Made by a program: the position numbers and the translations under genes. Source: a virus. From it: 64,000 nt of DNA. The stretch covers positions 1 through 64,000 of the IMG/VR virus record IMGVR_UViG_3300037316_000027; one strand, written 5' to 3'. Positions within the stretch are counted from its first letter, which is position 1; each line of letters starts with the position of its first letter. Positions 3,256 to 28,296 of this stretch are shown here, in pieces. A model generated the notes under the pieces. The model was given only the letters and a program-made list of their open reading frames with translations, made no database searches and had not been told where the DNA came from.

Positions 3256-3257
3256 AC

Positions 3258-3748: not shown

Positions 3749-3752
3749 GACT

Positions 3753-3839: not shown

Positions 3840-3843
3840 ATCC

Positions 3844-3918: not shown

Positions 3919-3925
3919 CTGTTGT

Positions 3926-4001
3926 TTGGGGATAGCTCAGCCGGTAGAGCGACGCGCTGTTAACGCGTAGGTCGCAGGTTCGAACCCTGCTCCCCGAGCC
4001 A
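3926..4001 (+). tRNA. tRNA-Asn(GTT)
   Basis: TTGGGGA/TCCCCGA-GCCA; ACGCG-CTGTTAA-CGCGT. Confidence 0.93.
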
Positions 4002-8348: not shown

Positions 8349-8557
8349 TGTTGCTGACCGCTCTTTGAAGGGATGTAAAATGCTGGATTGTTTTCGAGAC
8401 TTCGATCTGTCGCGCCCCGTGTGTCATCGGTGCGTCTACTTTGCCGTGCTTATGTCCATCCTCACCGCTGGCGTGGCGCTGGGGCTCGGTAGATAGCACC
8501 CGGGCTTGACTTGAAAAGAGATCGTTCAAATGTATCGGTTCTATGTGGGAGGCTAAT

Positions 8558-13184: not shown

Positions 13185-13607
13185 TCATCGCTTTCCAAAC
13201 GTTCCTGAAATGATGCGCGTGATCCGGGTTGAGGTTTCCGAGAGAAAATAAAAACCGAGGACTACCATAACAACATTCCAGAGGTTTGGGTCCAGTGTAT
13301 CAGTGCGGGTTTGAAAGAAAAATCCAAAAACCTTGTCGATTACGAAAATCTTGAACAGGTACAGTGCCGGGCCGATGGCGATCATAGACCTGATCCAGAT
13401 ATCGAGTGAGCCGTGCGCGGCGTCCGCGATCAGCACGTCGCGCCGCTGGCGGAGCGCGTCAATGTTCTCGTTGGCTGCAATCTGATCTTCTTGGGTCTGA
13501 GCCGTGATCAGCGCGATCTTCTGGTTAGAGATCGCAGCCGTGATACCGTTGATGGTGCCGAAAGCACCCGCAATCAGGGACGGAAGACCCGTAAGTAGTG
13601 CCCACAT
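13185..13607 (-). CDS. putative holin (3TM type)
   Basis: WIRSMIA...LW.VVMVVLGFYF; downstream of the endolysin. Confidence 0.6.
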   Translation of the reverse strand: MWALLTGLPSLIAGAFGTINGITAAISNQKIALITAQTQEDQIAANENIDALRQRRDVLIADAAHGSLDIWIRSMIAIGPALYLFKIFVIDKVFGFFFQTRTDTLDPNLWNVVMVVLGFYFLSETSTRITRIISGTFGKR

Positions 13608-13987: not shown

Positions 13988-14824
13988 TTATGCGGTAGCC
14001 GCCGGGATGGTCGGGAGAACGATGCCCGGCGGAAGCATGACGGATGCGTTCGCGCCTGATGCCTTGTTAGCGGAGAGAGCTTCGAAGACGACGCCCGAGA
14101 TAACGGTCAGGGCTGCAACGCCCGCCGTGTAATACCACTCGTATCCTGCCGTGTGTACGGCAGCGGCAGCCGCGAGAGTGCTGCCCGCCGTGGTCTTGGG
14201 GGCCGTGGTGCCGACGTGGATAGCTTTGGGCTGGACCAGATGCGACAGGTCGGCTGCCGCAGGGGCGGCGACCGGCGTACCACCCTTGGCAAGATGCAGA
14301 CAGTAGGTCTGAAGGTCCACTACGCGAGCGCCCCACCCGTTGCCGAATTCTCGCCACGCTTCGCCGCCACGGATGGCGTGCATGAAGTGCAGGCGCTCAG
14401 CGCACATGGCCTTGACGAAGACGCCGGGATCGGATTTCTTGATAGCGTCAAGCAGGGCCTGATCCATCACACCGCGTCCCGGTATTTTCAGAATGGCGCG
14501 AGCTGAGAGCACGCCGCGCGAAGAGCCAGAGTTGATGCCGTAGTCCAGCATGCAGGCATCGGGGCCGGCCGGGAGATCGTCATACCGAATGGCGGTGGCG
14601 TACTTCGTCTTGTAAATCTGTTCGGCGGGGGCCCGCGTCATCGCTTGAACGATGGGAGCCCACTTCGCCATGGAAGTCATCTTTTGACCCATGTGCTCCG
14701 CGAGATCATAGCACGTGATGCCGTACTTGGTCGGGCCGCCCGGGTCCTTCTTGTTCCAGCCGTAGCCGCCCTCATACTTGTCAATGATGCGGTCGATGGT
14801 TTGAATGTAGGTGATCACTGACAT
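13988..14824 (-). CDS. endolysin, glycoside hydrolase family 108
   Basis: EGGY...DPGGPTKYGIT, LPAGPD...DYGINSG, FGNGW..RV; hydrophobic C-terminus. Confidence 0.92.
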   Translation of the reverse strand: MSVITYIQTIDRIIDKYEGGYGWNKKDPGGPTKYGITCYDLAEHMGQKMTSMAKWAPIVQAMTRAPAEQIYKTKYATAIRYDDLPAGPDACMLDYGINSGSSRGVLSARAILKIPGRGVMDQALLDAIKKSDPGVFVKAMCAERLHFMHAIRGGEAWREFGNGWGARVVDLQTYCLHLAKGGTPVAAPAAADLSHLVQPKAIHVGTTAPKTTAGSTLAAAAAVHTAGYEWYYTAGVAALTVISGVVFEALSANKASGANASVMLPPGIVLPTIPAATA

Positions 14825-14899: not shown

Positions 14900-15277
14900 T
14901 TACGCGACCGGCGGAACGAGCGGAGCAGGGGCCGGGGCCGGGGCAGGCGCGGGCGCAGGCGCGGGGGCCGGGGTCAGGGCAGCGGCCGGAGCGGGCGCAA
15001 CCGGAGTACCGGCAACGGCGGCAGCGGAGGCGGCAACGAGCGCGGCGGCCGGAGACGACGGCTTCTTGGCCGCGACCGGGGCTACGACCTTGGCGGCCTT
15101 GATCTTCGCGACGGCGTCAGCTTCTACGCTGGTCAGTGCCGTGCGGACATCGGACGGAACACCCTTGAAGAAGTCGGTGATCTTTGTCGAACAAAGAACG
15201 CCGACGCCAAGGGAAACAACGCCGATGATGATATCGACTTCAAGATCGGTGAGCAGGGAGGGGTCGAATACGGACAT
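14900..15277 (-). CDS. membrane-anchored protein with (PA)n tail
   Basis: N-terminal TM segment; PAPAPAP repeats. Confidence 0.6.
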   Translation of the reverse strand: MSVFDPSLLTDLEVDIIIGVVSLGVGVLCSTKITDFFKGVPSDVRTALTSVEADAVAKIKAAKVVAPVAAKKPSSPAAALVAASAAAVAGTPVAPAPAAALTPAPAPAPAPAPAPAPAPLVPPVA

Positions 15278-15309
15278 GGCGGTGCCTTTCATGGGAATTA
15301 GGGTTCCCA

Positions 15310-15348
15310 CGTGTAGCACAACTGACGCGCTCGCCCAACTGGCAATTA
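15310..15348 (-). promoter_or_regulatory. late promoter of the lysis cassette
   Basis: TAATTGCCAG-TTGGGC-17-TACACG, with TG upstream of the -10. Confidence 0.55.
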
Positions 15349-16284
15349 CGCTCGGGTCCGGTGCGCCTTATACCAGTCGTATGTGAGACTTAGGCCCTTC
15401 GCGATCGAATAATCCGGCGCGAAGCCGAGTGCCCTAAGCTTGCTGAGATCAGCGTAGCAGTCCGGGCGGCCGTTCGGCTTGGTTTTATCGAACTGGATGC
15501 GATCGAGGCCCACGCCGCTGATATCTGAAAGCATGCCGGCGACGCGGCGGATGCTGCTCGCTTCGCCGCTGCCGATGTTGATCGCCCCGGATGTGCCCAA
15601 AGCCAGCATGCCGTGCACGATCCGCGCAAGGTCGGCGCTGTAGAGGAAGTCACGCGTCGGCGAGCCGTCTCCCCAGATAGAGACAACAGCATCCGGGTTG
15701 ACCGAGGCATCGTAGAACTTCTTGATCAGGGACGGCAGCACGTGGCCGGTCTCGGTGTTGAACCGATCACGCGGACCATACAAATTGCCGGAGACGAGAT
15801 AGGTGTAATCGAGCCCATGGCTTTCCTTGTACGCTTCGAGCATTGCCAGCATGTGCCGCTTCGCGTGACCGTAGCCGCTCTCCATGTTATGGGGCCGACC
15901 GTCGAAGATGTCGTCTTCTGTGTAAGGCAGTTTCGGCGGCCATGGATAGATCGCATTCGTCCCCATCGCCACGATTTTCTTGACACTGGCGACGACATGA
16001 GCCGAGTGGATCACGTTGGTATTGATCAGTGTGTTGTCGTAGATCGACTTCGCTTGGTTCTTCATGTTGCCCATGATGCCGTAGACGGTCGCGGCCGGAT
16101 GGTAGACGTACTCCGGTTCGATCCGATCGAACATCTTCATCACGGCGATCGGATCGCGGAGATCGCAGTCGCGGCGTGTGACTGGCACGACGCATGTGAG
16201 CCCGTGCGCGCAGAGATGTTCGACGACGGCGGAGCCGGCGAGCCCGTTGGCCCCGGTGACAAGAATACAGGAATTCTGTTTCAT
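15346..16284 (-). CDS. fcl: GDP-L-fucose synthase-like epimerase/reductase
   Basis: GANGLAG, CDLRD, YGHAKR, NLYGPRD.F....HVLPSLI.KF, WGDGSPTRDFLY. Confidence 0.85.
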   Translation of the reverse strand: MKQNSCILVTGANGLAGSAVVEHLCAHGLTCVVPVTRRDCDLRDPIAVMKMFDRIEPEYVYHPAATVYGIMGNMKNQAKSIYDNTLINTNVIHSAHVVASVKKIVAMGTNAIYPWPPKLPYTEDDIFDGRPHNMESGYGHAKRHMLAMLEAYKESHGLDYTYLVSGNLYGPRDRFNTETGHVLPSLIKKFYDASVNPDAVVSIWGDGSPTRDFLYSADLARIVHGMLALGTSGAINIGSGEASSIRRVAGMLSDISGVGLDRIQFDKTKPNGRPDCYADLSKLRALGFAPDYSIAKGLSLTYDWYKAHRTRA

Positions 16285-17147
16285 GCTTTTAATCCCTTGG
16301 TAGCCCGGGCAGCAGCTTGCCGCTCGGCCAGAAGTCGTAGCATATACTGACGGTGTCCGGGAGAGATCACGGTCCCGCCGCGAAGCTGTATTGGAGTTGA
16401 GGGCTGATACCGCCCCCACGCTTCCGGTCCGATCGCTTTCTCAAGCCATGAGACCGTGCTGTGGCGAAAGATATCTTTCATCTTGCCGCAGAGATAAGGC
16501 GTCTCGGTCATCAGCTTCGCGCGGGCGACAAGCTCGTCACGTTCCAGCATATCAATCCAGCGGAAGGCCCCATGGAAGCCGAAGTTCTCTGGGTTGCGCG
16601 GGCCAAGCTCCCACGAGAAACACGAGGCCAGCTCGTGGCCGGGCCACTTGAAGCCGCCTGCCAACTCCAGCCCCGCGCGCCGGTTGCGGCAGAGGTCCCA
16701 ATCGGTTGTGACCGGGTGCTCTTTCGGGTGGTCGGCGAGGAACCGGCCCAGACGTTTCGACATGAGGGTGAAGCCGCCATTGCCCACGTCGTGCGGATCG
16801 CCCGGTCGCACGAGCCACGGCGCTCCGATGTAGTCGTAATTGAAAAATTCCGGCCGCCACTTCGCGGGATCGTAGATGCCCGCGTCCCATTCGAGCATCA
16901 GGGCGAAGTCCGTTGTGATGCCGGCGCAGGCGTATTGATAGTAGAACTGTCCGGCCTCGCGCTTGTTGGGAAAGTCCTTGCACAGGATCAGGCGCGCGTC
17001 GAGCCCGTTGAACTCAGCGGGCTTGTCGGTATAGATCAGCACGTCTCCGAAGGTCGCCTTCGAGAGGCAGTCCTCGATCACGCGCTTGGTGATCTTATGG
17101 GCACGCGTCTCGACGAAGAGCAGGGTGCAGCGGGACAGATCGAGCAT
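16281..17147 (-). CDS. DUF5672-like putative glycosyltransferase
   Basis: EWDAGI....W...F..YDYIGAPW...VGNGGFTLMSKRL, FGFHG. Confidence 0.75.
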   Translation of the reverse strand: MLDLSRCTLLFVETRAHKITKRVIEDCLSKATFGDVLIYTDKPAEFNGLDARLILCKDFPNKREAGQFYYQYACAGITTDFALMLEWDAGIYDPAKWRPEFFNYDYIGAPWLVRPGDPHDVGNGGFTLMSKRLGRFLADHPKEHPVTTDWDLCRNRRAGLELAGGFKWPGHELASCFSWELGPRNPENFGFHGAFRWIDMLERDELVARAKLMTETPYLCGKMKDIFRHSTVSWLEKAIGPEAWGRYQPSTPIQLRGGTVISPGHRQYMLRLLAERQAAARATKGLKA

Positions 17148-17148
17148 T

Positions 17149-18129
17149 TCACCGCGCTCCCAGTTTCTTCATGGTGCGGACATTGTAGTACCAGTCGTCG
17201 GTGATGCTGTCCGGAAGAAGGTGATTGTCGAACGCGCGGACCAGATCATAGACCCCGTCTTCGATGCCGCGCTTCGGCACGAAGCCGAGCACGCGCATTA
17301 TCTTGTCCGAATTGAGCCGATACGAGCGCGGGTCATCGGAGGGCGTCGTCACTATTTCGAGACGATTGTCCCCAACTATGCGGTTCACGGTGTTGGCGAT
17401 ATCCTTGATCGAGCGGTTCTCAAAACCGATGTTGAATATCTCGCCCTGTACCTTGTTGTGTGGGGCGACCAGCATCACTAAGTAGGCGTCCACCATGTCA
17501 TCGATATGGAGATTAGGGCGCATCTGGTCGCCCCCGAATACGGTGATGCGACCGGTCTTGACTGCCTGATTGGTAAGAAGGTTGACGGACAGATCGAACC
17601 GGGTGCGCGGGCTGTAGCCGCAGATTGTGGCCGGACGCAGGATCGTGCACGTGAAGTCATCGGCCCGATGCTCCAACAGCAGCGGCTCGCACATGCCCTT
17701 GAACTTGTTGTAGAGGGACACCGGCACAAGCGGATGATCCTCGGTCACATCAGGGGAGTTGCTAATGCCGTAGACAGAGCCCGACGAGGCTAGGATGAAG
17801 CGCTGCACGCCTGCCATCTTGGCCGCCAATACCATCGGCTGGAAGCAATCATAGTTGGTCGTCTGGGAGAGCTGTTCGTCAAGTTCTACGCTCGCGTCGT
17901 TCGAGATGCAGGCCAGATGGATGACTGCGTACTGATGCTCGAAGTGACGCGAAAGCTGTTCGGTGTCCCTGATATCGCCCTGCACGACGTTTAGGCGCGG
18001 ATGGTTGGGGAGCCGACAGCCGAAGTAGAGCATGTCGTAGACAGTGACAGTGTAGCCTTCGTCAAGAAGGCGCGGCACAAGGACGTGCCCCACGTATCCG
18101 GCACCGCCAGTCACAAGAACATTTGTCAT
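17149..18129 (-). CDS. NAD-dependent NDP-sugar epimerase/dehydratase (SDR)
   Basis: TGGAGYVG, HLACISND, SSGSVYG, YNKFK. Confidence 0.9.
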   Translation of the reverse strand: MTNVLVTGGAGYVGHVLVPRLLDEGYTVTVYDMLYFGCRLPNHPRLNVVQGDIRDTEQLSRHFEHQYAVIHLACISNDASVELDEQLSQTTNYDCFQPMVLAAKMAGVQRFILASSGSVYGISNSPDVTEDHPLVPVSLYNKFKGMCEPLLLEHRADDFTCTILRPATICGYSPRTRFDLSVNLLTNQAVKTGRITVFGGDQMRPNLHIDDMVDAYLVMLVAPHNKVQGEIFNIGFENRSIKDIANTVNRIVGDNRLEIVTTPSDDPRSYRLNSDKIMRVLGFVPKRGIEDGVYDLVRAFDNHLLPDSITDDWYYNVRTMKKLGAR

Positions 18130-19229
18130 CAGAAGGGTCCTTTGAAAGACGGATCGGGCTTATCGATAGGAACGCCCTCACGGGCAGCGATCACGGCAGC
18201 CCGCGCCTCAGCGAATTGTAATCGCCGGACAGGCCCGGCAGTATCGTCGCAGAGGCGCTCCGTTGCATCAATGATATCTGCGGAGCTTGGATAGTAGGCT
18301 TCGGCAAGAGCGATCGAACTGGGGGTTGGGTGGTCCGGCAGACCGATACGCTCAACGGGCCGGTGAAGCATCTGGGGATCGCGCTCCGCGATCGAGGCGA
18401 TGATCTCCGCTCCCGCTCCGTATTGCCGGGAGCCGATGTCACACGTGATGAGCCGTCCTGTCCGGCGTACTGAGGCCATGATCAGATCGAGACTGAGGGG
18501 GCGCAGAACTCTCGCATCGATAACTTCAACGAAACAGCCGACATCCGCAAGCGCCTTCGCGGCCCGAATTGCCTCTAGGACCATATAGGAAGTCGCGACG
18601 ATCGTGGCGCAGTTTCCCTTCATGACGACCCGAGAGCCGACGAGCGGCACTGTGTAGTGTTCGCGCGGGACGATGCCTGTCACGTGATGCAGCCATCTGT
18701 GCTCAAGCATGATGACGGGGTTCTGGTCTTCGACGGCGGCGAGGATCATTCCCTTGAATTCATACGGGGTCGAAGGCATCACAACTTTGAGGCCCGGGAC
18801 GAGAGCGAACATCGCTTCCAAGCTTTGCGAATGCTGCGGCCCTTGGCCCCAGCCGCGACCGATGATCATCCGCACGAGCAGCGGCACCTTGTGCTTGCCC
18901 GTGCTGACGTAGCTGCTCTTCGCAGCCGCGTTGAACAGTTGCTCAAGACACAGGAGCCCGAAGTCTACGCGACGATGGGACATGATCGGGTGCAGTCCCA
19001 TCAAGGCACTGCCGATCGCCATCCCGGTCATCCCGTTTTCGGAGATGGGCATTTCGATGACGCGCTCCGGACCGAACTCGGCCGGGAGGCCCTTGGTCGT
19101 GCCGAAAACGGCGTCGAGAGCCGTGACGCCCTCGCCAGTCAGATAGACGCCCGGGTTATCGCGCAGGGCGATCGTCAGTGCCTCCCGGATTGCTTCGACC
19201 GAAGTGATGGCGTCACGATCATCCTGCAT
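18129..19229 (-). CDS. TPP-dependent enzyme, E1-beta / transketolase C-terminal subunit
   Basis: PISENGMTG.AIG, GRGWGQGPQHSQ, PGLKVV.P. Confidence 0.88.
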   Translation of the reverse strand: MQDDRDAITSVEAIREALTIALRDNPGVYLTGEGVTALDAVFGTTKGLPAEFGPERVIEMPISENGMTGMAIGSALMGLHPIMSHRRVDFGLLCLEQLFNAAAKSSYVSTGKHKVPLLVRMIIGRGWGQGPQHSQSLEAMFALVPGLKVVMPSTPYEFKGMILAAVEDQNPVIMLEHRWLHHVTGIVPREHYTVPLVGSRVVMKGNCATIVATSYMVLEAIRAAKALADVGCFVEVIDARVLRPLSLDLIMASVRRTGRLITCDIGSRQYGAGAEIIASIAERDPQMLHRPVERIGLPDHPTPSSIALAEAYYPSSADIIDATERLCDDTAGPVRRLQFAEARAAVIAAREGVPIDKPDPSFKGPF

Positions 19230-20736
19230 AGACGTGATCTCCTGCGGTCTCGGGATCAGGGAACGGCGCGGCCTCGGCGAATGCAAATGCCTCAGCGATC
19301 TCTGCCGTGATCTCCTGCCGTAGCGTATTGATGGTGCTGCTCAGCGCGGGTTGGAGCTTCAGCAACGGGTCTGTCGCCTTCCACGCTTCGAACTCTTCCG
19401 GTGTCCGATAGCCGAGCGTATGGTCGAAGTTGGGGCCGCAGTGTTCGCGCAATCGATAGGTAGTAGCTTCGATGAAGCTCGGCCCATTCCCGGCGCGCGC
19501 CTTGGCAACGGCGACGGTCATGGCGTCGCGGACGGCGAGCACGTCGTTGCCGTCCACGCGCTGAGCCTCGATACCATGCGACTGGGCGAGCCCGAGAATG
19601 GGCCGCTCCGGCTGCCGTTCGTGCAGCGGCGAGTAGCCGGCGTAGAGATTGTCTTCGCAGACGAAGATAACGGGCAGCTTGCGCAGGGCCGCGAAATTCA
19701 GGCTTTCGTGAAACGCGCCCTCTTCGACGGCGGCGTCGCCCATGTAGACCACGGAGACATCGTCCGTGCCCTTGTACTTCATCGCGAACGCAGCGCCGAC
19801 CCCGATCGGGATCGAGGCCCCGACGATCGGCACACTGACTAGAACCCCGGCCGAGGGATCGAACAGATGCATCGATCCGCCCCGGCCTCCGCAACATCCG
19901 GCCTCGCGGCCCATCATCTCGCAGATCATGGTTTTGAGATCGCCGCCTTTGGCAAGGTAGTGGGCGTGGCAGCGATGCGTGGAAACGATCTGATCGGACG
20001 GGCGCAGCGCGGCGCTGACACCGACCGCGACGGCCTCTTGCCCGACTGACAGATGGATTGGACAGCGCATTTTCTGGTCCGCGTAGCGGGTCGCGATCTC
20101 TTCCTCGATCATGCGAATGCGAAGCATGTCGCGGTAGAGCTTGTTGGGGCGGTGCTCATTTTGCTCCCACACCGCGATAGCAAGATCGAGGATCGCGTGA
20201 CAAATCGTCAAGTGTCCGATCTCGACGAAGCCATAGCGGTTATCGGGGAGCCAGAAATTGATATCACCTGTCTTGCGGAGCGGGTTGTCCGCCTCGAAGC
20301 CGGAGAGCGTGATGACATGCATTAACTTGGCGCGCGCGGCAGCGACGGCCGCCAGAATGTTCGGTGACTTTCCGGAGCTGGAGATCGCGATCAGCAAATC
20401 TCCTTCGCGTCCGTGTCGTTCGACCGGCAGCGCGAAACTCTGCTCGTAGCCGAGATCGTTGGTGAGGCACGTGAGTTGCGGCCCGTCGTTGAAACAGAGA
20501 GCGGCGAACCCACCGTTTTTGAGCCAGTCCGTGGCCATATGACTGGCGATAGCGGCCGAGCCGCCATTGCCTACGAAGATGACACGGCCGTCGTTCGATT
20601 TGACGGCCAGCGATAAGCCAACTGCCCGCGTGAACGCTTCCTCGCTATCGATCGCTTCCGTAGCCCCGAGGTTATTCGCCTTGATTTGTGTGCCAAGAAA
20701 TCCGAGACGGGCGAAGTATCTGACCAGATCGTTCAT
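19219..20736 (-). CDS. fusion of a GmhA-like SIS phosphosugar isomerase and a TPP-dependent E1-alpha subunit
   Basis: GNGGSAAIASH, TCLTNDLGYE, ISSSGKSPNI; then HLSVGQEA, GRGGSMH, GDAAVEEG...N TPP motif. Confidence 0.88.
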   Translation of the reverse strand: MNDLVRYFARLGFLGTQIKANNLGATEAIDSEEAFTRAVGLSLAVKSNDGRVIFVGNGGSAAIASHMATDWLKNGGFAALCFNDGPQLTCLTNDLGYEQSFALPVERHGREGDLLIAISSSGKSPNILAAVAAARAKLMHVITLSGFEADNPLRKTGDINFWLPDNRYGFVEIGHLTICHAILDLAIAVWEQNEHRPNKLYRDMLRIRMIEEEIATRYADQKMRCPIHLSVGQEAVAVGVSAALRPSDQIVSTHRCHAHYLAKGGDLKTMICEMMGREAGCCGGRGGSMHLFDPSAGVLVSVPIVGASIPIGVGAAFAMKYKGTDDVSVVYMGDAAVEEGAFHESLNFAALRKLPVIFVCEDNLYAGYSPLHERQPERPILGLAQSHGIEAQRVDGNDVLAVRDAMTVAVAKARAGNGPSFIEATTYRLREHCGPNFDHTLGYRTPEEFEAWKATDPLLKLQPALSSTINTLRQEITAEIAEAFAFAEAAPFPDPETAGDHVYAG

Positions 20737-22259
20737 TTGAGAAGCGTCCTTATGTAGGCAAGGGTCTGGGCCTTCTCCACCGGCTTGCGATGGCCGAGAA
20801 TGCCGACTTTGATAGCGCCGACAGCATTGCCGATGAAGCTGACCGCTTCCAGATCGTCCGAGACGGCCGCTAGTGGCGATGTGACGGCGAAGAATGCATC
20901 ACCAGCCCCCATGGTGTCAACCACTCGCTTCGTGAAGGCAGGCACGATAACCGCGTCGTCTTCGCCGAGCCAGCTTGCGCAGCCCTCGCTCCCGTGCGTC
21001 AGGATCAGGCGATCCACGTCGATCTTCTCCCGTAGAGCGGCAGCGACGGCGCTCAGGTCCGTGTCCTTGGTCGAGATTGCGAGACGTGCTTCTGGTGCGT
21101 CAAGACAAAGGTAATCGGCCCTCGGATACTTGGTCGCGAGGTTATAGCCAAAGTTGCCGGCGTTGCTCTGCACATTGAGCGCAAGAAATTTCGAGTTCTC
21201 CAACAGGGCCGCGCGGACCCCCGGCGTGAGCAGTCCGTGACCGAAGTCATTCACGATCACCACATCGAAATCTTTCGCCCGTTGCTCGATCTTTTCGACG
21301 AACCGATCGTTCAAGCTTCCAGTCAGGGGCGAGGCGTCCATGGTGTAAACTTCGAACAGCTTGCGCAGGTACGCGCTGTCGATGAAACGCGTCTTGCGCA
21401 CGGTAGGCATTCCGGGGCGGATGATAGAGCGCACCGTAACGTTCGGTCGGATCGAGCTATGTATGAGGTCTTCGTAGCTCTCTACCTCGCCGAGGCAGGT
21501 AAACACTTCCACGTTGGCGCAGAAGTCGGCCACGTGATTGGCAGTGGCGATAGCGCCACCAGCGAAGACTTCCCTGTTGAGCCGCAGTGTCGCCAGCACA
21601 TTCTCCTTCGGCGGCTTGCCAAGCGGGGCAACGTAGGTGTACTCGTCGATGATCGCTTCCCCGACCACCAGTACGTTCAATCCCGCGATCTGTGAGAGCA
21701 ACTCGGGGATGCGCTTGGCGAGACCCCGCTCTCGGGCGTGATCCAGATATTCGCGCAATTCGAGGTTCGACGTATCGAGATATTGGTTGATCAGGGCGGA
21801 AGAGCTGAAGGTGATGTCGTCGGTGAAGTGGATGCGACCGCCGTGGCTCTCAACGGCGCGCTGCTCCGCAATGATGTTGCCCGTGATGTCCGTGCTCGTG
21901 TCCTTGTAGTCAGGACCCTTGACGTAAACATCGGGCATGATCGCGTCGATCACGCTGACCGCACTTCCGGCGTGAGTGATGACGACGCCGCCGACGCATC
22001 CGATCGCGCCGACCATCTCCGCTCGCAAGTCGTGCGGAAAGTGAGGGCGCTCGGGACCCTTGTTGACAAACTCGTCAGCCGTGACGGTCACCAGCAAAAC
22101 ATCGCCCTGTCGGCGCGCTTCCTCGAAGTAGCGGACGTGGCCCAGATGCAGGAGATCGAAGACGCCGTTGGTCAACACGACGCGCTGACCCGTGTTACGG
22201 CATACTCTCGCATACTCGGTTAGCTCGGCGAGAGTTTTGATCTTCGACTTCGCGCTCAT
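20733..22259 (-). CDS. HldE/RfaE-like bifunctional nucleotidyltransferase + PfkB kinase
   Basis: GVFDLLHLGH, NKGPERP, YVKGPDY; DFGHG, DTMGAGDAF. Confidence 0.88.
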   Translation of the reverse strand: MSAKSKIKTLAELTEYARVCRNTGQRVVLTNGVFDLLHLGHVRYFEEARRQGDVLLVTVTADEFVNKGPERPHFPHDLRAEMVGAIGCVGGVVITHAGSAVSVIDAIMPDVYVKGPDYKDTSTDITGNIIAEQRAVESHGGRIHFTDDITFSSSALINQYLDTSNLELREYLDHARERGLAKRIPELLSQIAGLNVLVVGEAIIDEYTYVAPLGKPPKENVLATLRLNREVFAGGAIATANHVADFCANVEVFTCLGEVESYEDLIHSSIRPNVTVRSIIRPGMPTVRKTRFIDSAYLRKLFEVYTMDASPLTGSLNDRFVEKIEQRAKDFDVVIVNDFGHGLLTPGVRAALLENSKFLALNVQSNAGNFGYNLATKYPRADYLCLDAPEARLAISTKDTDLSAVAAALREKIDVDRLILTHGSEGCASWLGEDDAVIVPAFTKRVVDTMGAGDAFFAVTSPLAAVSDDLEAVSFIGNAVGAIKVGILGHRKPVEKAQTLAYIRTLLK

Positions 22260-23059
22260 TTTCCACGGCTCTCCCAAGCGAGGGAGGGGCGGATCACAGG
22301 GACGCCGCCGCGCACGAAGCTGACATCGCCGTCCGGCTGGTGGGACATCATGTCGAGATGGGTCGGCATCTTGGGGTCCACCGTGTTCTCCCGCATGAGG
22401 CGCACCCGCTCGGCGAGGCGCTCGCCCTCCAGCACTTGAGGGAAGTTGAAACTGTCGTGGAACATGAAGTGCTTCGATGTCAGTGACGGGCGGGTATACT
22501 CGAAAGCGAGCCGGGAGGCAAGCTGTTCGTCGGGCCATTTGAACCCGTAGCGCTCAAGCGCCGGCCGATAGACGATGGAGAGGGTCGTGTCGTCGTTGCC
22601 CTCGAACGGCACCTGATCGTCGGACAGCTTGAACTCGTCCGGGTGATCCTTCAAGAATTGCATCAGCCGCTTCGAGCGCAGCCCGCAACCGTTGCCGACG
22701 TTGTAGTTGCCCGGGGGCGTCCACCACGGGGCTCCGATGTAGTCGTATTCCAGAAATTCGTCGGTCCACATCTCCGGGTTGGTGATCCAGCAGTCCCACT
22801 CCGTGAGCAAGAAATGGCTTGTCTTCAGGAAGGGCGCGAGATCGGACCACATCCAGCGGCCGAAGACTTTGCTGCTAGGCCATTTGGGGACCTGTACGAA
22901 GCGTACATCCGGAAAGCCCTCCAGCGGTTCGTCGCAGAAGATCACCACGTCTCCGTAGTCAGCCGCTTCGAGACTGTCGCGCAGCGACAGGGCCGCCAGA
23001 TCGTGGCATACGATATCAACCATCATGAGGGTCACGTCAGGCAGTTGCAGCTTGCTCAT
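22256..23059 (-). CDS. DUF5672-like putative glycosyltransferase (paralog of 16281..17147)
   Basis: EWDCWI.NP..W..EFL.YDYIGAPW...VGNG..LRSKRL. Confidence 0.75.
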   Translation of the reverse strand: MSKLQLPDVTLMMVDIVCHDLAALSLRDSLEAADYGDVVIFCDEPLEGFPDVRFVQVPKWPSSKVFGRWMWSDLAPFLKTSHFLLTEWDCWITNPEMWTDEFLEYDYIGAPWWTPPGNYNVGNGCGLRSKRLMQFLKDHPDEFKLSDDQVPFEGNDDTTLSIVYRPALERYGFKWPDEQLASRLAFEYTRPSLTSKHFMFHDSFNFPQVLEGERLAERVRLMRENTVDPKMPTHLDMMSHQPDGDVSFVRGGVPVIRPSLAWESRGK

Positions 23060-23748
23060 TGAACTTCTCCCCTAGCGGCTATGAGCGCGGCCCACGCTTC
23101 GCGCGTCTTGGCCCCGTGGATGAAAATGTATCCGTCGTTCTTGACGGCATTGATCCCGACCGTGAGATGCTCTGGGACAGTCGAGAAGTGGCCGCCGACC
23201 GCGCCCTCGAAGCCACGCCACGGCAGCCCAGCCGCGTAGGCCAGTTGCACCATGTAGTGATCGATGTTGAGCAGCCGTGGATCGTAGACGATCTTGTCGG
23301 CGCTCGCGAGCATCGCCTCGATCGTTTTGCGCGACAGAAAATACGGAGGCTGGAATGCGACGTGCGGAAGGGTCTCGTCGAGATACGGGTCCGGGTCCGC
23401 GTCAGTCGCTACCATGGACCATACAAGGTCCGGCTCGGCATAGAGATAGGCGGGCAGTTCTGGCGTGAGGCACGCGCTGTCCGCGTCGTTGATGAAGAAA
23501 TACTTCTCCGGGTAGCTCAAGAGGATTTCAAGGTGCCGACGCTGACGCTCCAGCGATGGAATGCCCGTGTAGGCGCGCGCGCCGCCGAACCTGTTCTCGA
23601 CGCCGGGATGGATGATCTCTACGCGGCTATCGTCTGGCGACAGGATGGTGACCGGCCGACCGTGATGTATGTGAAGGCCAAGGTTACCCTGCACGAGGGG
23701 ATGATCCCCCGCGTAGCAACAGACGGCTACCCGCGTGTCCTCGTTCAT
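23056..23748 (-). CDS. putative glycosyltransferase (DxD), paralog A
   Basis: INDADS motif; close paralog of the adjacent gene. Confidence 0.55.
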   Translation of the reverse strand: MNEDTRVAVCCYAGDHPLVQGNLGLHIHHGRPVTILSPDDSRVEIIHPGVENRFGGARAYTGIPSLERQRRHLEILLSYPEKYFFINDADSACLTPELPAYLYAEPDLVWSMVATDADPDPYLDETLPHVAFQPPYFLSRKTIEAMLASADKIVYDPRLLNIDHYMVQLAYAAGLPWRGFEGAVGGHFSTVPEHLTVGINAVKNDGYIFIHGAKTREAWAALIAARGEVQ

Positions 23749-24449
23749 GCGGTCAACTTCCCGACTGCCCCGAGGAAGGTTCGTCGTGCGACTACAAGGG
23801 CTCGCATGTCTTCAGGCTTCTTGATCCCGTGGAAAATACTGATGCCGTCGCTGAGGGCGAGGCGCAATGCCAGCGAGGGGTGACAACAAACACAACTCTC
23901 GAACCTGCGCCACGGCAGCCCGGCCGCGTAGGTCAATTGAACCATGTAGTAGTCGATGAAGGGCATCATGTCGAGAGATGGCACGACCTTGTCGGCGCTC
24001 GCGAGCATCGCCTCGATCGTTTTGCGGGAGAGAAAGTAAGGCGGCTGGAACGCGACGTGGGGCCAGCCCTTGGGGAAGGTTGCCTGATGCTGAGGGATGT
24101 CGTCGTTGACTTGGTTCGACCAGACGAGATCAGGTTCGGCATAGAGGTAGGGCGGAAATTCCGGATCGAGACAAACGCTGTCGGCATCGTGGATCATGAA
24201 GTGTGTCTCAGGAAACTCCAGAAGGATTTCGAGATGACGGCGCTCACGCTCCAGCGTGTGACCGCCAGTGTGCCCGGCCAATCCGCCATGACGGTTATCG
24301 ACGCCGGGAATGACGACGGGGCTGTCCTCGGGGGAGAGGATTACGACCGGGCATTCGTGATGCAGATAGAGATCAAGATTTTCTCTGACCACTTGCGCAT
24401 CGCCGGCATAGCAACAGACCGCGACGCGGGTGTCAGAGTTCATCGTCAT
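23745..24449 (-). CDS. putative glycosyltransferase (DxD), paralog B
   Basis: IHDADS motif; shares [10 protein letters not shown] and [25 protein letters not shown] with paralog A. Confidence 0.55.
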
Positions 24450-25467
24450 AGACCTTACCGGCTTTCAGATCGCTAACGACCATTTCGTGAACGAGTTCTT
24501 CGAAGCCGACCTTGGGCCGCCATCCCAGAACGCGCCGGGCCTTGGACGCGTCGCCTTTGAGGAAGTCAACTTCGGTCGGACGGAAGTATTTGGGGTCTAT
24601 ACTGACAAGAGCCTTCCCTGTCAAGTCGCTGAAGCCTACTTCGTCCGCTCCCTCCCCTTTCCAGACGATCGGCTGTCCGATCAGGGCGAAAGCGGTCTCC
24701 ACGAACTCGCGGACAGAATGGGCCTCTCCCGTAGCGATTACATAGTCGTCCGGCTTGTCCTGCTGGAGCGCCAACCACATTGCTTCGACGTAGTCCTTGG
24801 CATGGCCCCAATCGCGCACGGCGTTGAGGTTGCCGAGCTGGAGATGCTCCGACCGGCCTTGGTGGATCGCGGCGACAGCCTGCGTGATCTTGCGCGTGAC
24901 GAACGTCGGACCGCGACGCGGGCTCTCGTGATTGAACAGGATGCCATTGCTGGCGTGCATGCCGTAGGCCTCCCGGTAGTTGACCGTGATCCAGTAGGCG
25001 TAGAGCTTCGCAACGCCATAGGGTGAGCGGGGCTTGAAGGGGGTCTTCTCGTCGAGTATCGGCCATGTCTGGAAATTCAGTTGATCGCCGTACATCTCTG
25101 ACGTGCTCGCCTGATAGAGACGTGTCTTCAGGCCGAGCGTGTTGACAGCTTCAAGCAGCCTCAGCGCCCCGATCGCATCCGCGTTAGCAGTATACTCAGG
25201 CGTCTCAAAGCTGACTTGCACATGGGACTGAGCCGCGAGATTGTAAATCTCATCTGGAGCCACATCATGTATAATGCGAGTGAGATTTGATCCATCTGTC
25301 ATGTCCCCGTAGTGCAGCTTCAGGTCCGGCAGATGATCGATACGCGATGTGTTGAACGAAGACGCGCGTCGTTTGAGACCGTGGACTTCATAGCCCTTGC
25401 CGAGCAACAGCTCCGCGAGATAGCTGCCGTCCTGCCCGGTAACTCCGGTGATCAATGCGCGTTTCAT
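24433..25467 (-). CDS. gmd: GDP-mannose 4,6-dehydratase
   Basis: [49 protein letters not shown]. Confidence 0.96.
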
Positions 25468-25808
25468 TCGAAAACTCCCTCTAAGACTATTTCTCCCTTC
25501 ACGATCGAACCATGAAAGAGGCATGTCGGATGTTTGCGGCCGTGACCACCGCTTCTCGTGTTATCGATACTGGGGATCAAAGTCAGACGATCGGGCCAGC
25601 TTGCGCCGTCTGGAAGGATGTTCGCTTGCCAACGATGTGTCTTTTCATCTTGAAGACCGAGCCCTAACTTGATCGAGACCCGGAATGGAGGACCGCACGC
25701 CGGGCACGTGAAAGTGAGATCATACTCATCAATGAGGACGCCGCCTGTCTCCGGTGTAAAACCCCGAACGCATTGTCGCCATTCTGGACTAAGCTCTATG
25801 AGTTTCAT
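25464..25808 (-). CDS. hypothetical protein with CxxC and C..H motifs
   Basis: FTCPACG...LTLIPSI...CLFHGSI. Confidence 0.6.
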
Positions 25809-26128
25809 GGGAGACACCTTTCGGCTTTGTTGATGATCCACTGTGGCACGTGTTTCTCGATAGCCTCAGCCCGAGCTTCGGCCCGTGAGTGCGTTATGAG
25901 ATAGGCCCTGATCTTGTCGCAGAGTGAGTTCATTTCGTTGCACGGGGTCCAGCCTGAAGACATGGCTTCGTACCGTGCGGCTCCGTAACAGGTCCACACG
26001 TCTTCGTCAGCGTGCGCGGGCCGCGCCATCGCGCATGCGCCGATTGCCAATAGCGCAGCGAGCGCAAGGAAGAGCGCCCACGGAAACAAACCCCTGATGC
26101 TAGGAGGAACGTCTTTCAACTTCATCAT
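25805..26128 (-). CDS. secreted or membrane-anchored Cys-containing protein
   Basis: Hydrophobic segment ending in AHA; ATGA coupling. Confidence 0.5.
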   Translation of the reverse strand: MMKLKDVPPSIRGLFPWALFLALAALLAIGACAMARPAHADEDVWTCYGAARYEAMSSGWTPCNEMNSLCDKIRAYLITHSRAEARAEAIEKHVPQWIINKAERCLP

Positions 26129-26763
26129 GCTTTTAGCCCCGCAAGTGGTCTTGGCGTGTGCTGATCGACAATATCCGTCCGAAGCCAAGTCTCGGTCGGT
26201 GTCCCAAACTGTTCTTGCGTCCATCCCCCGTAACATCTCACGTAAGGCTGCAACTCTTTCATGTGGGCGTTCCAGCCCCGGCGGAAACCGTGCGCCGCGT
26301 TCCACGGCTGGTCGCGAACGAAGTGCTTGCCCTCTACCGTCATGTGGACGCCGCACGTGATGACATGAACGAACCCCAACTCGCGGGCGATCTTTACACA
26401 AAAGAGGCCGGTCGAGCCGGACCAGTCTCGGGTCCAGTGCGTGACAGCCCCTTCGTAGTTCCGATGAGCCCAGACTTTCTCCGGTACGTTGAGCCCCGCT
26501 GCCCTGCGACGCGGGAGCCAGATAGAGAGCTTGTCCGGGTGCAACGTGATCGCATGCATGATGTCTTCCGGGAATTTTTCTATCATGTCATTGCCCGCGA
26601 AGATAGTGATAGTTCGCTCAGCCCTCGCGCAGAGTTCCTTCGCCTGTGCGTATTCAGCGAACGGGTCGCCGCCGCCACACATGACAACGGCGACATCTTG
26701 CCGCGTCGGCGACAGGGCGCGCGGAGGCGGCGCGATCGGCGGACGCATGATACGCAGGGTCAT
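26125..26763 (-). CDS. hypothetical protein, possible glycan-modifying enzyme
   Basis: VVMCGG, AGND, GSTGLFCVKIA..LGF..VITCGV pattern is like Rossmann-type transferases. Confidence 0.5.
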   Translation of the reverse strand: MTLRIMRPPIAPPPRALSPTRQDVAVVMCGGGDPFAEYAQAKELCARAERTITIFAGNDMIEKFPEDIMHAITLHPDKLSIWLPRRRAAGLNVPEKVWAHRNYEGAVTHWTRDWSGSTGLFCVKIARELGFVHVITCGVHMTVEGKHFVRDQPWNAAHGFRRGWNAHMKELQPYVRCYGGWTQEQFGTPTETWLRTDIVDQHTPRPLAGLKA

Positions 26764-27710
26764 GCCTTGTCCCTAATCTGTATACAAGTTTCGGAGACAA
26801 ACCCCTCTACCGCGCCCCGAGCGAAGTCCATATTAAGGCTTTTGTCGCAGACTTTCCGACACTGGGAAGTCCAGCACGTGCACGAGACCCTAGGGCCGAT
26901 TGCCATGTAGGGTGCGAACTTCTTTCCGGCATCGTGACAGCGCGGGTCTTCGTAACCGCCGACGATCGAGAGCGTCGGCGTCCCAACCGCCGGCCCGAGG
27001 ACAGCCGCGAAGCCACTTGACGTGAAGACGAGATCGGATTGCTTGAACAAGGCAGCTAGAGCTTCGAATACAAGCTCACCGTGATGGAAACTCAGGTCCG
27101 CTTTAGTTTCCGGTCCGACGATCCATTCCTTCCCGTCACAAAGGTCTGCGACCGATATCGTGAAGAACTTCTCTCGGACGATTTCGAAAAGCTCGGCGTA
27201 AGCAGCTTGATCAGCATTGCGTGCGATGCTACCACGCCATTCCGGGCGCGCGACCAAGGGTCTGTATACGCACCACGGTCGCTCAGAAGCGATTTGCGGA
27301 AGTGGTCCGAGTTGCTTGAACAATAGTCCAGTCCAAGCATCAGGGACAGGGAGAGTAAAGTCCGCCGTGGCGAAATCGGTGCCGGTAACATTGCACATAA
27401 CCTCAAGGATTGTTTTGCTGGGCGTCTGTAGCACTTGTTGGCCGCCGTAGGCAATACGCATCCCGGCGCTCCGGGTGAGTGGGTGACGCGCCGTGAATTT
27501 GTCCGCCTCGCGCTGCTCATTCTTCATCTGGGTCCGCAGAGCGATGCCGCGACGCACGACGATCAGGCCCTCGGCAATCAGGTCGTGATACATCGCAGGC
27601 CATGGGGTCATGAGAGTGACGGTGTGACGTTGCATGAGCTGCCGCAGGACCGCGCGCTGATGCAGACAGTCGCCGAGCCCTCCCATGCCTTGGATGAAGA
27701 GCGGCATCAC
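26760..27710 (-). CDS. GT9-like (heptosyltransferase-type) glycosyltransferase
   Basis: GLGDCL N-terminal motif; LAALFKQSDLV..SSGF..LGPAVGTPTL.I.GG; C-terminal CxC..C. Confidence 0.75.
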   Translation of the reverse strand: MMPLFIQGMGGLGDCLHQRAVLRQLMQRHTVTLMTPWPAMYHDLIAEGLIVVRRGIALRTQMKNEQREADKFTARHPLTRSAGMRIAYGGQQVLQTPSKTILEVMCNVTGTDFATADFTLPVPDAWTGLLFKQLGPLPQIASERPWCVYRPLVARPEWRGSIARNADQAAYAELFEIVREKFFTISVADLCDGKEWIVGPETKADLSFHHGELVFEALAALFKQSDLVFTSSGFAAVLGPAVGTPTLSIVGGYEDPRCHDAGKKFAPYMAIGPRVSCTCWTSQCRKVCDKSLNMDFARGAVEGFVSETCIQIRDKA

Positions 27711-27905
27711 TCAATTACCCCACTGATATGTGTAGGTCGGTTGTTCAGGTTTCGCTACGGCACGTGGTCGGTTCTGCTCTACTGGAGGCAACGAAAAATC
27801 CCGCGCTGCTTTGAGCATCGCGAGATAGTCGCCACCATGAAAGTAGAGCATCGACGCCGTCAGAAACGCCGACAGAGGAATTTGCCAGCGCATCCCGACC
27901 TCCGG

Positions 27906-28280
27906 TCACCCATGAGTAATAGTCGCCGAAGTGATCGTGACCGGCTGGCCGGCAACGATGTTCGTGCTCGACAGCACGATGTCCGACGCCGAAACGCCGA
28001 CCGTCAGTCCGGAGACGATTACAGTGCCGCCGCCATTGACAGCGGTCGAAATCGTTGCCGCGACTGCGGTGCCCGAGGCGTTCGCGCTCGCCTCGGTCAG
28101 CGGAGTGCTGCCGAAGGTCAGGACACCGCCGGTCACGGTGCCCGCCGGGTTCGCCAACGCGATCGACGCCAGAAGCGTCGGGACCGAGTTGAAGATGTTG
28201 AGATAGCCCGTCGTGCCGATCGCGGTGACGACATCCGTCATTCGGGTATTCTTTAGCGTAGCATTGTAGTTGACTGCCAT
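27906..28280 (-). CDS. virion structural protein (tail tip / fibre-associated)
   Basis: T/S/G/A-rich beta protein with GGAGG SD, in the tail block. Confidence 0.65.
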   Translation of the reverse strand: MAVNYNATLKNTRMTDVVTAIGTTGYLNIFNSVPTLLASIALANPAGTVTGGVLTFGSTPLTEASANASGTAVAATISTAVNGGGTVIVSGLTVGVSASDIVLSSTNIVAGQPVTITSATITHG

Positions 28281-28296
28281 GGTGGCCTCCTATCAA

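Follow-up and report, generated by a model that had tools for sequence, protein, structure and literature searches.

A coupled block of sugar-nucleotide and glycosyltransferase genes between the virion and lysis genes of an uncultured tailed phage

IMGVR_UViG_3300037316_000027 is a single record of 126,820 bp from an uncultured tailed phage, with sequence from metagenomes only. Its first half, a stretch of 64,000 nt, was analyzed here (the window, to which positions refer unless genome positions are named). A block of 14 genes, g01-g14, lies at 15346-27707 on the minus strand of the window, with virion genes on one side and the lysis cassette on the other. As far as sequence analysis tells, it is a late, virion-adjacent and coupled block of sugar-nucleotide enzymes and glycosyltransferases (GTs), and it has two layers, i.e., a core cassette conserved in the phage lineage and an added module with heptose-type enzymes and a thiamine diphosphate (ThDP)-dependent E1 pair. 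Glycosylation of the virion with phage-made sugar donors is in our view the best reading of this block, one that is drawn wholly from gene context and that we regard as somewhat probable.

Results

Fourteen coupled genes between virion and lysis genes

The original prediction, made from the letters of the window without database searches, had described about 14 tightly coupled genes between tail and lysis genes, and this layout was borne out (Table 1). Neighboring genes overlap by 1-17 nt, save for one 1-nt gap, and on these sequence grounds g01-g14 are translationally coupled. The block of ~12 kb makes up 9.7% of the genome; all 14 open reading frames (ORFs) are intact, and their G+C content at third codon positions (GC3) is phage-like. 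On the strand of the block, no sigma-70-like promoter was found within 12.5-32 kb. No protein of the block is a multi-pass membrane protein (they have at most two hydrophobic segments, and those with two are not known transporters), and we found no flippase, polymerase, ligase, lipid-carrier glycosyltransferase or Gtr/Wzx/Wzy-like protein in it. Family matching against Pfam, PHROGs and NCBIfam with curated cut-offs initially left six genes without a family (g01, g02, g03, g04, g06 and g07), and a megablast search of the phage collection with the complete block gave no match.

Contigs from two independent watershed runs, ~97% identical, span the junctions g05/g06, g06/g07, g07/g08, g08/g09, g10/g11 and g11/g12, and also the joint between the two domains of g10. 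The g12/g13 junction is not spanned by the listed pieces from independent runs. In one contig of an independent run, position 17147 is joined to 24399 and the 7251 bases between them are left out, which hints at a co-occurring relative without the heptose/E1 module.

Sugar-donor enzymes

The block had been predicted to hold gmd and fcl-like genes, an HldE-like kinase/nucleotidyltransferase, a GmhA-like isomerase, ThDP-dependent alpha and beta subunits and an SDR-type (short-chain dehydrogenase/reductase) epimerase. The gmd gene, the ThDP-dependent subunits (g10, g11) and the SDR (g12) were found as named, and the other assignments held in part. With 547.4 bits over a cut-off of 415 in TIGR01472 (residues 21-354 aligned to positions 1-340 of the 342-position model), g05 is, by sequence, a true GDP-mannose 4,6-dehydratase. 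g14 is an SDR with a match to the Fcl model NF047922, but the match stays below the cut-off (228.2 bits versus 500). Compared with E. coli GMER (1e6u), g14 keeps Tyr136, Lys140 and His179; Ser107 is replaced by Thr and Cys109 by Ala, and g14 hence does not have the full set of GMER catalytic residues, i.e., Ser/Tyr/Lys and the Cys109/His179 pair. The position equivalent to Cys109 is Ala in all nine phage-lineage homologues compared and Cys in four of four bacterial Fcl-like proteins from the retrieved loci. We take Cys109 and His179 of GMER to be the acid-base pair for 3,5-epimerization. If this role holds, the product of g14 may not be L-fucose, and we propose, from its residues, that g14 is a GDP-4-keto-6-deoxymannose reductase with altered epimerization.

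Both domains of an HldE-like enzyme are present in g09, but in reverse order, i.e., the nucleotidyltransferase (~17-157) precedes the kinase (~188-489). Apart from its order, g09 also scores well under the HldE equivalog (158.9 bits versus 521), and its 104 bits for rfaE domain II and 102 bits for domain I are both under cut-off. Best PDB matches were 5x9q and 3glv for the nucleotidyltransferase and 4e84, a heptose 7-phosphate kinase, for the kinase; in sequence, both domains are closest to heptose enzymes.

The predicted GmhA-like isomerase is there as an SIS domain (SIS_2, E 1.7e-12), but not as a separate gene, since it is fused to E1-alpha in g10. Its 89.3 bits for gmhA (TIGR00441) lie below the equivalog cut-off of 209.45. 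The fusion is unique to this protein among the best 120 homologues listed, the other 119 being unfused, and a scan of IMG/VR with the single fusion protein gave four pattern matches, none of which was confirmed. In the E1-alpha alignment the GD...ENN ThDP motif of g10 is invariant. Against the pyruvate dehydrogenase (PDH) models, g10 reached 304.1 bits (E1-alpha, cut-off 393.85) and g11 263.8 bits (E1-beta, cut-off 321). With these low scores and no lipoyl-E2 partner in the genome, the pair falls outside the E1 components of PDH and acetoin dehydrogenase; a search of the entire genome turned up neither a 2-oxoacid_dh (E2) nor a Biotin_lipoyl domain. g10 and g11 are instead flanked by the sugar-activating g09 and the SDR g12, the gene context of sugar C-branching E1 pairs. 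The best PDB sequence match of g12 was 6vo6/6vo8 (E 1e-33), and we propose from sequence that g12 is a C4-dehydrogenase of nucleoside diphosphate (NDP)-heptose.

Glycosyltransferases and small proteins

Of the five to six transferases that had been predicted, three are supported (g01, with a GT9-like fold, and the GT-A paralogues g06 and g07), and two to three, i.e., the DUF5672 pair g08/g13 and g02, are putative. Structure prediction, which had been suggested as a check, gave a GT9-like GT-B fold for g01 and a GT-A fold for g06. The AlphaFold 2 model of g01, built from 26 homologues, has a pLDDT of 90.6. Foldseek matched it to WaaF (1psw, 1.2e-9), a Veillonella GT9 protein (3tov, 3e-9) and WaaC (2h1h, 1.8e-7), and also to the protein O-heptosyltransferase TibC (4rap, TMq 0.58-0.59) at 10-13% identity. 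The modeled fold of g01 is thus GT-B and nearest to GT9 structures; a sequence search against the PDB gave no match at E<=10. Four cysteines (276, 278, 283 and 287) are conserved in the homologue alignment. g01 is ~60-70 residues shorter than the TibC chains (371-389 aa), and its model opens with a Rossmann-type strand-helix. Its donor would probably be ADP-heptose.

The AlphaFold 2 model of g06 (pLDDT 94.5) matched CHSY3 (5.6e-8), B3GNT2, B3GalT5 and GT6 enzymes in Foldseek (E 6e-8 to 1e-6, TMq 0.6-0.66), and the second Asp of the DAD motif (D90) is invariant in the family alignment. We therefore assign g06 and g07 to GT-A transferases by a GT31/GT6-like fold, predicted for g06, and the DxD motif. 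For g06 there was no Pfam, PHROG or phage-collection match (tblastn), and a PDB sequence search gave one chance-level match; in the Protein Atlas, as a lead only, clusters carrying Glycos_transf_2 (13% of members) and Galactosyl_T (49%) are close to it.

The two DUF5672 proteins g08 and g13 are 35% identical to each other. In the family alignment, g13 shows the invariant motifs E-W-D and DYIGAPW. g08 found eight weak records in the phage collection (tblastn, <=31% identity) and, in the Protein Atlas, sub-0.9 leads only, e.g., WavE. Comparison of the DUF5672 and GT-A families with hhalign showed no relation, PDB and profile searches with g08 and the DUF5672 alignment gave no useful match, and a literature search on DUF5672 found no relevant description.

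g02 accompanies g01 in 19 of the 41 viral loci described below. Its weak resemblance to MptE/DUF115-type transferases comes from a Pfam MptE-like match (E 0.34); an hhalign match to the phrog_4603 alignment (E 0.004, probability 8%) is a lead only, and a profile search against the PDB gave no sequence match. g03 has homologues in 6 of the 41 loci, and its hydrophobic segment at residues 9-27 suggests a signal peptide or membrane anchor.

A lineage core and an added module

An alignment-based search of IMG/VR with g01 retrieved 41 viral loci. Ten of these (L088-L095, L098 and L099) share one gene order: tail genes, g01, g02, in part g03, gmd, GT-A (one gene or two), a single g13-type DUF5672 gene, the fcl-like gene, endolysin and holin. 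Identities in this core cassette are 44-82% over the ten related loci, with 70-81% for g05 and 50-73% for g13. A second, g08-type DUF5672 gene was not seen in the related loci, where the single DUF5672 region is best matched by g13. In none of the 41 loci did g09, g10 or g11 have a match, and g12 had a single one (27% identical, L096). From these comparisons, the block is composed of a lineage core and an added module, i.e., g08-g12 with the extra GT-A gene g07.

Relatives of the added module are found in bacteria. In the genome collection, 361 relatives of E1-alpha from many phyla were confirmed, of which we kept the best 80 (L001-L080) and searched within 10 kb by tblastn. E1-beta was found in 77 of these 80 loci, a g12-like SDR in 57, a nucleotidyltransferase-kinase of the same domain order in 49 and an SIS protein in 42; g01, g02, g06, g07, g08 and g13 were absent within 10 kb in all 80. 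Same-order homologues in the bacterial loci cover 100% of g09, and the bacterial E1-alpha proteins are 50-67% identical to the phage protein (best segment, best 80 of 361). The nearest locus among the best 80 was L002, in a metagenome-assembled genome of Rhodospirillales. It has, in the phage order, nucleotidyltransferase-kinase (62% identity), SIS (61%), E1-alpha (69%) and E1-beta (65%), with SIS and E1-alpha as separate genes; compared with these, ~7 and ~22 terminal residues are lost in the in-frame fusion of g10. SDR (55%), gmd (58%) and Fcl-like (33%) genes lie on the opposite strand of L002. Its neighbors are GT2, GT4 and DegT aminotransferase genes, and no E2 or lipoyl gene was found among its 19 ORFs. 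The E1 cassette was also seen in polysaccharide loci of Chlamydiae, Verrucomicrobia, Nitrospirae, Alteromonas, Azospirillum, Leptospira and Desulfobacterales.

In viruses, an alignment-based scan of IMG/VR found 18 loci with E1-alpha at 35-55% identity. Loci L129-L131, L133, L143 and L145 have the E1 module, usually with genes for DegT aminotransferase, another SDR and a radical SAM enzyme beside it. Five contigs with the viral E1 module were scanned with Pfam, and three of them have terminase, portal or integrase genes close by: a large terminase and a portal in L143, a P22-like portal in L131, and a small terminase and an integrase in L130. A literature search found, among the papers it covered, no description of a heptose/ThDP-E1 cassette or of a product assigned to one. 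A possible parallel, a Coxiella lipopolysaccharide (LPS) region with E1 genes, found no confirmation among the papers listed and was dropped.

The g01 family in other phages

The ORFs around g01-family genes, 142 in all, were scanned in 12 diverse viral loci. In 10 of the 12, phrog_6804 is surrounded by head, connector or tail genes, and it often comes right behind the capsid gene. A fusion with a phrog_4603 protein was seen in 4/12 loci, and a separate phrog_4603 gene nearby in another 2/12; phrog_4603 bears the name 'alpha-2,3-sialyltransferase'. In the D3-like Pseudomonas phages PP9W2 (L086) and PAJU2 (L087), phrog_6804 stands between head-closure and tail genes, beside a methyltransferase. 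Genes expressed late are expected to be silent in lysogens, and from its place in the late operon, expression of phrog_6804 in lysogens of D3-like phages is unlikely. Head-neck operons with phrog_6804, often followed by a methyltransferase-like gene, were seen in L102, L107, L110, L113, L119, L117, L122, L086 and L087. In L097, a phrog_3758 protein precedes the g01 homologue, as in the window.

Candidate acceptors

A second module that looks like a glycosylation module, judged from its genes, lies in the head region (46005-52099, minus strand). Its GT4-type gene stands between the genes for collagen-like proteins and the major capsid gene. Gly-x-Thr accounts for 24 of 33 triplets in one of the two collagen-like proteins and for 110 of 140 in the other. 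The GT4 protein is 52% identical to a GT of a cyanophage (ACG-2014f), where the gene comes after those for a collagen-repeat protein and two hypothetical proteins and ahead of a 2-oxoglutarate-Fe(II) oxygenase and a tail fiber gene. The module also holds a 298-aa Ser/Thr-rich repeat protein (47740-48636) and a gene of no assigned role (47059-47739). For GPT collagen repeats, a passage of PMC7157674 describes O-glycosylation of Thr by a GT that is encoded beside bclA3. From their composition, the Gly-x-Thr collagen-like proteins and the virion protein encoded at 27906-28280 are candidate acceptors.

Table 1. Sugar block, lysis genes and virion genes in the window
Feature	Position	Strand	Assignment	Basis or remark
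g01	26760-27707	-	GT-B glycosyltransferase, GT9-like fold (predicted), 315 aa	phrog_6804, E 4e-36
g02	26125-26763	-	conserved g01 partner	frame; no firm family
g03	25805-26125	-	106 aa, Cys-containing	frame and GC3 profile
g04	25464-25808	-	114-aa CxxC protein	start with Shine-Dalgarno-like AAGG; weak DUF6527 match, E 0.011
g05	24433-25467	-	GDP-mannose 4,6-dehydratase (Gmd)	PF16363, E 7e-147
g06	23745-24449	-	GT-A glycosyltransferase, DAD (DxD) motif	fold prediction
g07	23056-23748	-	g06 paralogue (GT-A)	58% identity over 229 aa, E 5e-85; shared DAD motif
g08	22256-23059	-	DUF5672 protein	PF18922, E 9.8e-13, 48.5 bits versus threshold 24.4
g09	20733-22259	-	sugar-1-phosphate nucleotidyltransferase and PfkB kinase	CTP_transf_like and PfkB
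g10	19219-20736	-	SIS isomerase domain (~4-197) and E1-alpha (~200-504) in one ORF	SIS_2 and E1_dh
g11	18129-19229	-	E1-beta	Transket_pyr and Transketolase_C
g12	17149-18129	-	extended SDR	Epimerase, E 1.8e-39
g13	16281-17147	-	DUF5672 protein, copy kept in the phage lineage	PF18922, E 1.3e-9, 38.4 bits versus threshold 24.4
g14	15346-16284	-	Fcl/GMER-like SDR	NF047922
g15	14900-15292	-	membrane-anchored Ala/Pro-rich protein	hydrophobic segment 12-30, long tail ending (AP)n
Endolysin	13988-14824	-	GH108	PF05838, E 1.3e-16; phrog_315
Holin-like gene	13185-13607			downstream lysis cassette
Upstream virion protein	27906-28280	-	virion structural protein, 124 aa, Ser/Thr-rich	directly upstream of g01; phrog_3758, E 6.9e-8
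Tail-fiber-like gene	29303-30145	-		upstream of the sugar block
Tape measure	35872-38202	-		virion module
Capsid	44677-45828	-		virion module
GT4	46005-47108	-	GT4-type glycosyltransferase	phrog_3408, E 5e-127; Glycos_transf_1
Collagen-like proteins	48606-52099	-	two collagen-like virion proteins	collagen-like and tail-fiber PHROGs
Scaffold	52424-53374	-		virion module
Portal	56669-58378	-		virion module
Terminase	58450-60210	-		virion module

Discussion

A proposed glycosylation pathway

We propose that the block encodes a late-expressed cytoplasmic glycosylation system, by which the phage would make activated sugars and attach them to its own virion proteins. The substrates, products and acceptors named here are what we infer from gene identities, folds and synteny. 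In the core pathway, the Gmd g05 would convert host GDP-mannose to GDP-4-keto-6-deoxymannose, and g14 would reduce this 4-keto intermediate to a GDP-6-deoxyhexose, not necessarily L-fucose. g01, probably with ADP-heptose, would then build the glycan together with g02, the GT-A enzyme g06 and the DUF5672 protein g13. The added module (g07-g12) would start with the SIS domain, which may convert sedoheptulose-7-phosphate to heptose-7-phosphate. The g09 kinase would form the 1,7-bisphosphate, host GmhB would take off the 7-phosphate, and the g09 nucleotidyltransferase would yield an NDP-heptose, probably ADP-heptose. After oxidation at C4 by the SDR g12, the E2-less ThDP E1-alpha/beta pair may add a pyruvate-derived two-carbon unit to the keto sugar, and the extra GT-A enzyme g07 and the DUF5672 protein g08 would transfer the new sugar. 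Possible acceptors are the Gly-x-Thr collagen-like fibers, the Ser/Thr-rich protein encoded directly upstream of g01, or capsid and tail proteins. The original prediction, a tailed phage that glycosylates its particle with unusual sugar donors of its own making, is supported in part. The unusual donors are supported as far as the heptose/E1 module and the Cys-less Fcl-like enzyme are concerned, and the donors themselves are conjectural.

We favor the virion as the target because of the site and coupling of the block, because ten of 41 related loci have the core cassette at this site, with tail genes before it and lysis genes after it, and because the g01 family occurs amid head, connector or tail genes (10/12 loci, and two D3-like phages besides). 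The GT4 gene beside Gly-x-Thr collagen-like virion proteins and the presence of TibC among the best structural matches of g01 point the same way, as does the finding of no tyrosine integrase, no Gtr/Wzx/Wzy-like membrane protein and no hydroxymethylase.

Several points weigh against this reading. GT9 enzymes classically act on the LPS inner core, cyanophage gmd and heptose genes are usually read as host-surface genes, and the donor genes of the block are homologous to genes of bacterial polysaccharide loci. g01 falls outside Pfam Glyco_transf_9, with no Pfam family at E<=10, and its length and the opening of its model suggest that TibC's N-terminal barrel is missing. g02, g08 and g13 are putative transferases that our searches did not link to a GT fold. 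The identity of 6vo6, the best match of g12, with Cj1427 is presumptive. On the capsid and tail-tube proteins there is no obvious Ser/Thr-rich C-terminal tail. The whole genome gave no match to GmhB or NTP_transferase, and GDP-mannose synthesis genes were not found in it; without GmhB and these genes, the pathways would lean on the host. Lastly, E1 modules of bacteria and of other viruses usually come with a second SDR, DegT aminotransferases and radical SAM enzymes, and the phage is without these; the two-carbon-branch reading may hence be wrong, and the real chemistry may differ.

A more far-reaching proposal is that the cassette, found in many bacterial phyla, makes a heptose nucleotide with a two-carbon branch or a lengthened chain by a pathway not described before, that unrelated phages have taken it up time and again, that a nine-carbon sugar, a non-fucose 6-deoxyhexose and heptose would be displayed on the virion, and that phrog_6804 is a heptosyltransferase of virion proteins. 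The phage would then be a tailed counterpart of the giant viruses that are self-sufficient in glycosylation. Taken together, we regard these statements as rather unlikely.

Other possible targets of the pathway

Remodeling of the host envelope during lytic infection is an unlikely rival. The enzymes would then modify LPS core, O-antigen or capsule as these are being made, on the cytoplasmic side, with a block of superinfection, progeny that do not stick to debris or an altered receptor display as possible benefits. The g01 fold matches the LPS heptosyltransferases WaaF and WaaC, the donor module is homologous to bacterial polysaccharide-locus cassettes with GT2, GT4 and aminotransferase genes, viral contig L130 has its E1 module near an integrase and a small terminase, as a conversion module might, and g03 carries a signal- or anchor-like segment. 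However, the block has no lipid-carrier GT, flippase, polymerase, ligase, Gtr-like or multi-pass membrane protein. Tyrosine integrase (PF00589) was not found in the whole genome, with serine recombinases not searched separately, and there was no integrase PHROG among 128 ORFs scanned. By these searches, the phage shows no sign of the temperate lifestyle or of the Gtr/O-antigen membrane enzymes of seroconverting phages. Moreover, the block is co-oriented with the virion genes and lies behind them, and even the temperate D3-like phages have their g01 relatives within head-neck operons.

Less likely still, the transferases might act on a small molecule or on other proteins, for example on host proteins, late or once DNA has been injected, in anti-defense or takeover, or on a non-structural phage protein such as g03 or g04. 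GT-B and GT-A enzymes take many substrates, the small conserved g02, g03 and g04 accompany g01, and methyltransferases accompany its relatives. Nothing, however, points to a specific non-virion target. The ~12 kb given to the block, with several distinct transferases, suggest a complex glycan and not a single regulatory modification, and the recurrent site beside capsid and connector genes also argues against such a role.

It is very improbable that the sugars are placed on modified DNA bases to protect against restriction. Glycosylation of DNA by phage GTs is well known, as stated in passages of PMC12619734 and PMC9614988, and in other viral contigs terminase and portal genes are close to the E1 module. 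In this phage, however, no match of the thymidylate synthase family (Thymidylat_synt, i.e., ThyA-type dCMP/dUMP hydroxymethylase) was obtained in the complete genome and no PHROG match indicated an enzyme that makes a modifiable base, nor were deazaguanine or base-modification genes found among 86 further ORFs of >=115 aa at E<=1e-5. The block is far from the replication genes, and the transferase folds are GT9-like and GT31/GT6-like, with no DNA glucosyltransferase among the listed matches.

An assembly chimera or decaying bacterial DNA without phage function, conceivable for a metagenome assembly with a module 60-70% identical to bacterial genes, is hardly credible given 14 of 14 intact, coupled ORFs with phage-like GC3, seven internal junctions spanned at ~97% identity by contigs from two runs of another study, and an in-frame SIS/E1-alpha fusion with trimmed termini.

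Relation to known systems

Virion glycosylation of Che8-type mycobacteriophages was reportedly described by Freeman et al. in 2023. Like these, the present phage is a tailed phage with GT genes attached to the structural block; glycans on virion proteins are at hand there, genes alone here. Mycobacteriophage systems presumably encode transferases only and use host donors. Unlike them, the phage encodes donor synthesis (Gmd, the Fcl-like enzyme and the heptose/E1 module), and its host is probably Gram-negative, as judged from the LPS-type enzymes and the GH108 endolysin. Mycobacteriophage capsid and tail-tube glycans are mentioned in a citing passage of PMC12619734.

Among giant viruses, the chlorovirus PBCV-1 has a GMD (A118R) and a GMER (A295L) that feed capsid N-glycans, and Mimivirus has collagen-like proteins together with the virus-encoded transferase L230, according to a passage of PMC9614988. 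The phage would resemble chlorovirus in a viral Gmd and a GMER-type enzyme acting on host GDP-mannose, as predicted from its genes, and it resembles Mimivirus in having collagen-like virion proteins alongside a virus-encoded transferase. Unlike in these giant viruses of eukaryotes, its Fcl-like enzyme has no Cys109 equivalent, and a heptose/ThDP module, of which there is no report in them, is added.

TibC glycosylates proteins in the cytoplasm by O-heptosylation from ADP-heptose, and g01 shares with it a predicted GT-B, GT9-related fold and four conserved cysteines. A passage of PMC4358343 describes TibC/AAH as a dodecamer with an N-terminal beta-barrel, a thumb in the form of a beta-hairpin, and a Cys4 iron finger in the C-lobe. 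In contrast, g01 is 10-13% identical, has 315 aa versus 371-389 and is apparently without the barrel; metal binding by its cysteines and their homology to the iron finger are hypothetical.

As in the HldE/GmhA and Campylobacter pathways, isomerase, kinase and nucleotidyltransferase domains would be followed by an SDR acting on an NDP-heptose. Unlike HldE and GmhA, the phage proteins have the reversed domain order, score under the NCBIfam cut-offs and have the isomerase fused to E1-alpha, with no GmhB. Campylobacter presumably makes GDP-heptose with a different type of kinase and transferase. Its NDP-heptose C4-dehydrogenase Cj1427 oxidizes GDP-heptose at C4, as given in a passage of PMC10680097.

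In antibiotic biosynthesis, the E2-less E1 pairs Plm8/Plm9 (paulomycin) and AviB1/AviB2 (avilamycin) are proposed, in a passage of PMC4802897, to add two-carbon branches to 4-keto sugars. g10 and g11 are likewise a PDH-E1-like alpha/beta pair in a sugar pathway without E2/E3. Plm and Avi act on dTDP-deoxyhexoses for actinomycete antibiotics, whereas the neighbors here imply a heptose nucleotide, in a phage or a Gram-negative polysaccharide locus. For the GT4/collagen module at 46-52 kb, and not for the 12-kb block, SgtA-BclA3 of Clostridioides difficile is a parallel: the GT gene adjoins the gene for a collagen-like protein with Gly-x-Thr triplets, and Thr is O-glycosylated in BclA3. This is, however, a spore surface protein, and the GT is a different one.

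Virion glycosylation by phage transferases, and viral GMD/GMER and collagen-like proteins with a GT in giant viruses, are thus already known from passages of these sources. New is such a combination in a tailed phage of probable Gram-negative host, with a conserved late cassette that includes a Cys-less Fcl-like enzyme. A further novelty is the captured heptose/ThDP-E1 module with its SIS/E1-alpha fusion (unique among the best 120 homologues listed), as is the link to a GT9-like family that is widespread in head-neck operons of cultured phages. If virion glycosylation is indeed its role, tailed phages of Gram-negative hosts could carry a self-contained system to make sugars and decorate their particles, like giant viruses, with consequences for adsorption, stability, immune recognition and the design of phage therapy. 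The GT9-like family also occurs in head-neck operons of the cultured Pseudomonas phages D3, PMG1 and PAJU2, so that the hypothesis can be tested at the bench now. The phage has the cassette in a minimal, partly fused form of four proteins, which would indicate the core chemistry and give a small set of genes to express.

Other features of the phage genome

Three gene calls were revised. ORF 27745-28296 is non-coding by GC3 and overlap, and the true ORF is 27906-28280 (GC3 0.78 versus 0.54 in the overlapping frame; Ser+Thr 27%). ORF 25805-26401, as first listed, was replaced by g03 on the basis of frame and GC3. For g09, the start at 22538 (ORF 20733-22538) was rejected, because its first ~95 codons are non-coding by GC3 and overlap, in favor of 22259. 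Gaps of 53 nt and 75 nt flank g15, which is probably a member of the lysis cassette, outside the sugar cluster, and may have an accessory or spanin-like role in lysis.

The genome has a G+C content of 59%, and its completeness according to CheckV is 100%. The record's first 100 bases, at the least, are found again 198 bases before its end; this recurrence at genome positions 1-198 and 126623-126820 could stem from a direct terminal repeat or from a circular assembly whose ends overlap. The morphogenesis genes are of siphovirus type and all on the minus strand. Identity of the capsid protein to the phage collection is at most 55.7% (746/746 matching records below 60%). The best-matching sequencing run is a peat run, possibly the source; the two watershed runs, from a different study, contain 56-63% of sampled words, and no RNA run is among the runs listed as carrying the phage sequence.

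Replication genes (polymerase, primase, helicase and a T5-like dNMP phosphatase) lie at genome 101-121 kb. The last of these encodes a T5-like deoxyribonucleoside 5'-monophosphate phosphatase (genome 118363-119262), and a nucleoside 2-deoxyribosyltransferase-like gene is found at 8543-9136 of the window. Together with the missing match to the thymidylate synthase family, these two genes hint at manipulation of the nucleotide pool. Ten tRNA genes are present in the genome as an array (2969-4001), and a gene for an RtcB-type tRNA ligase (1112-2479) is located just upstream of it.

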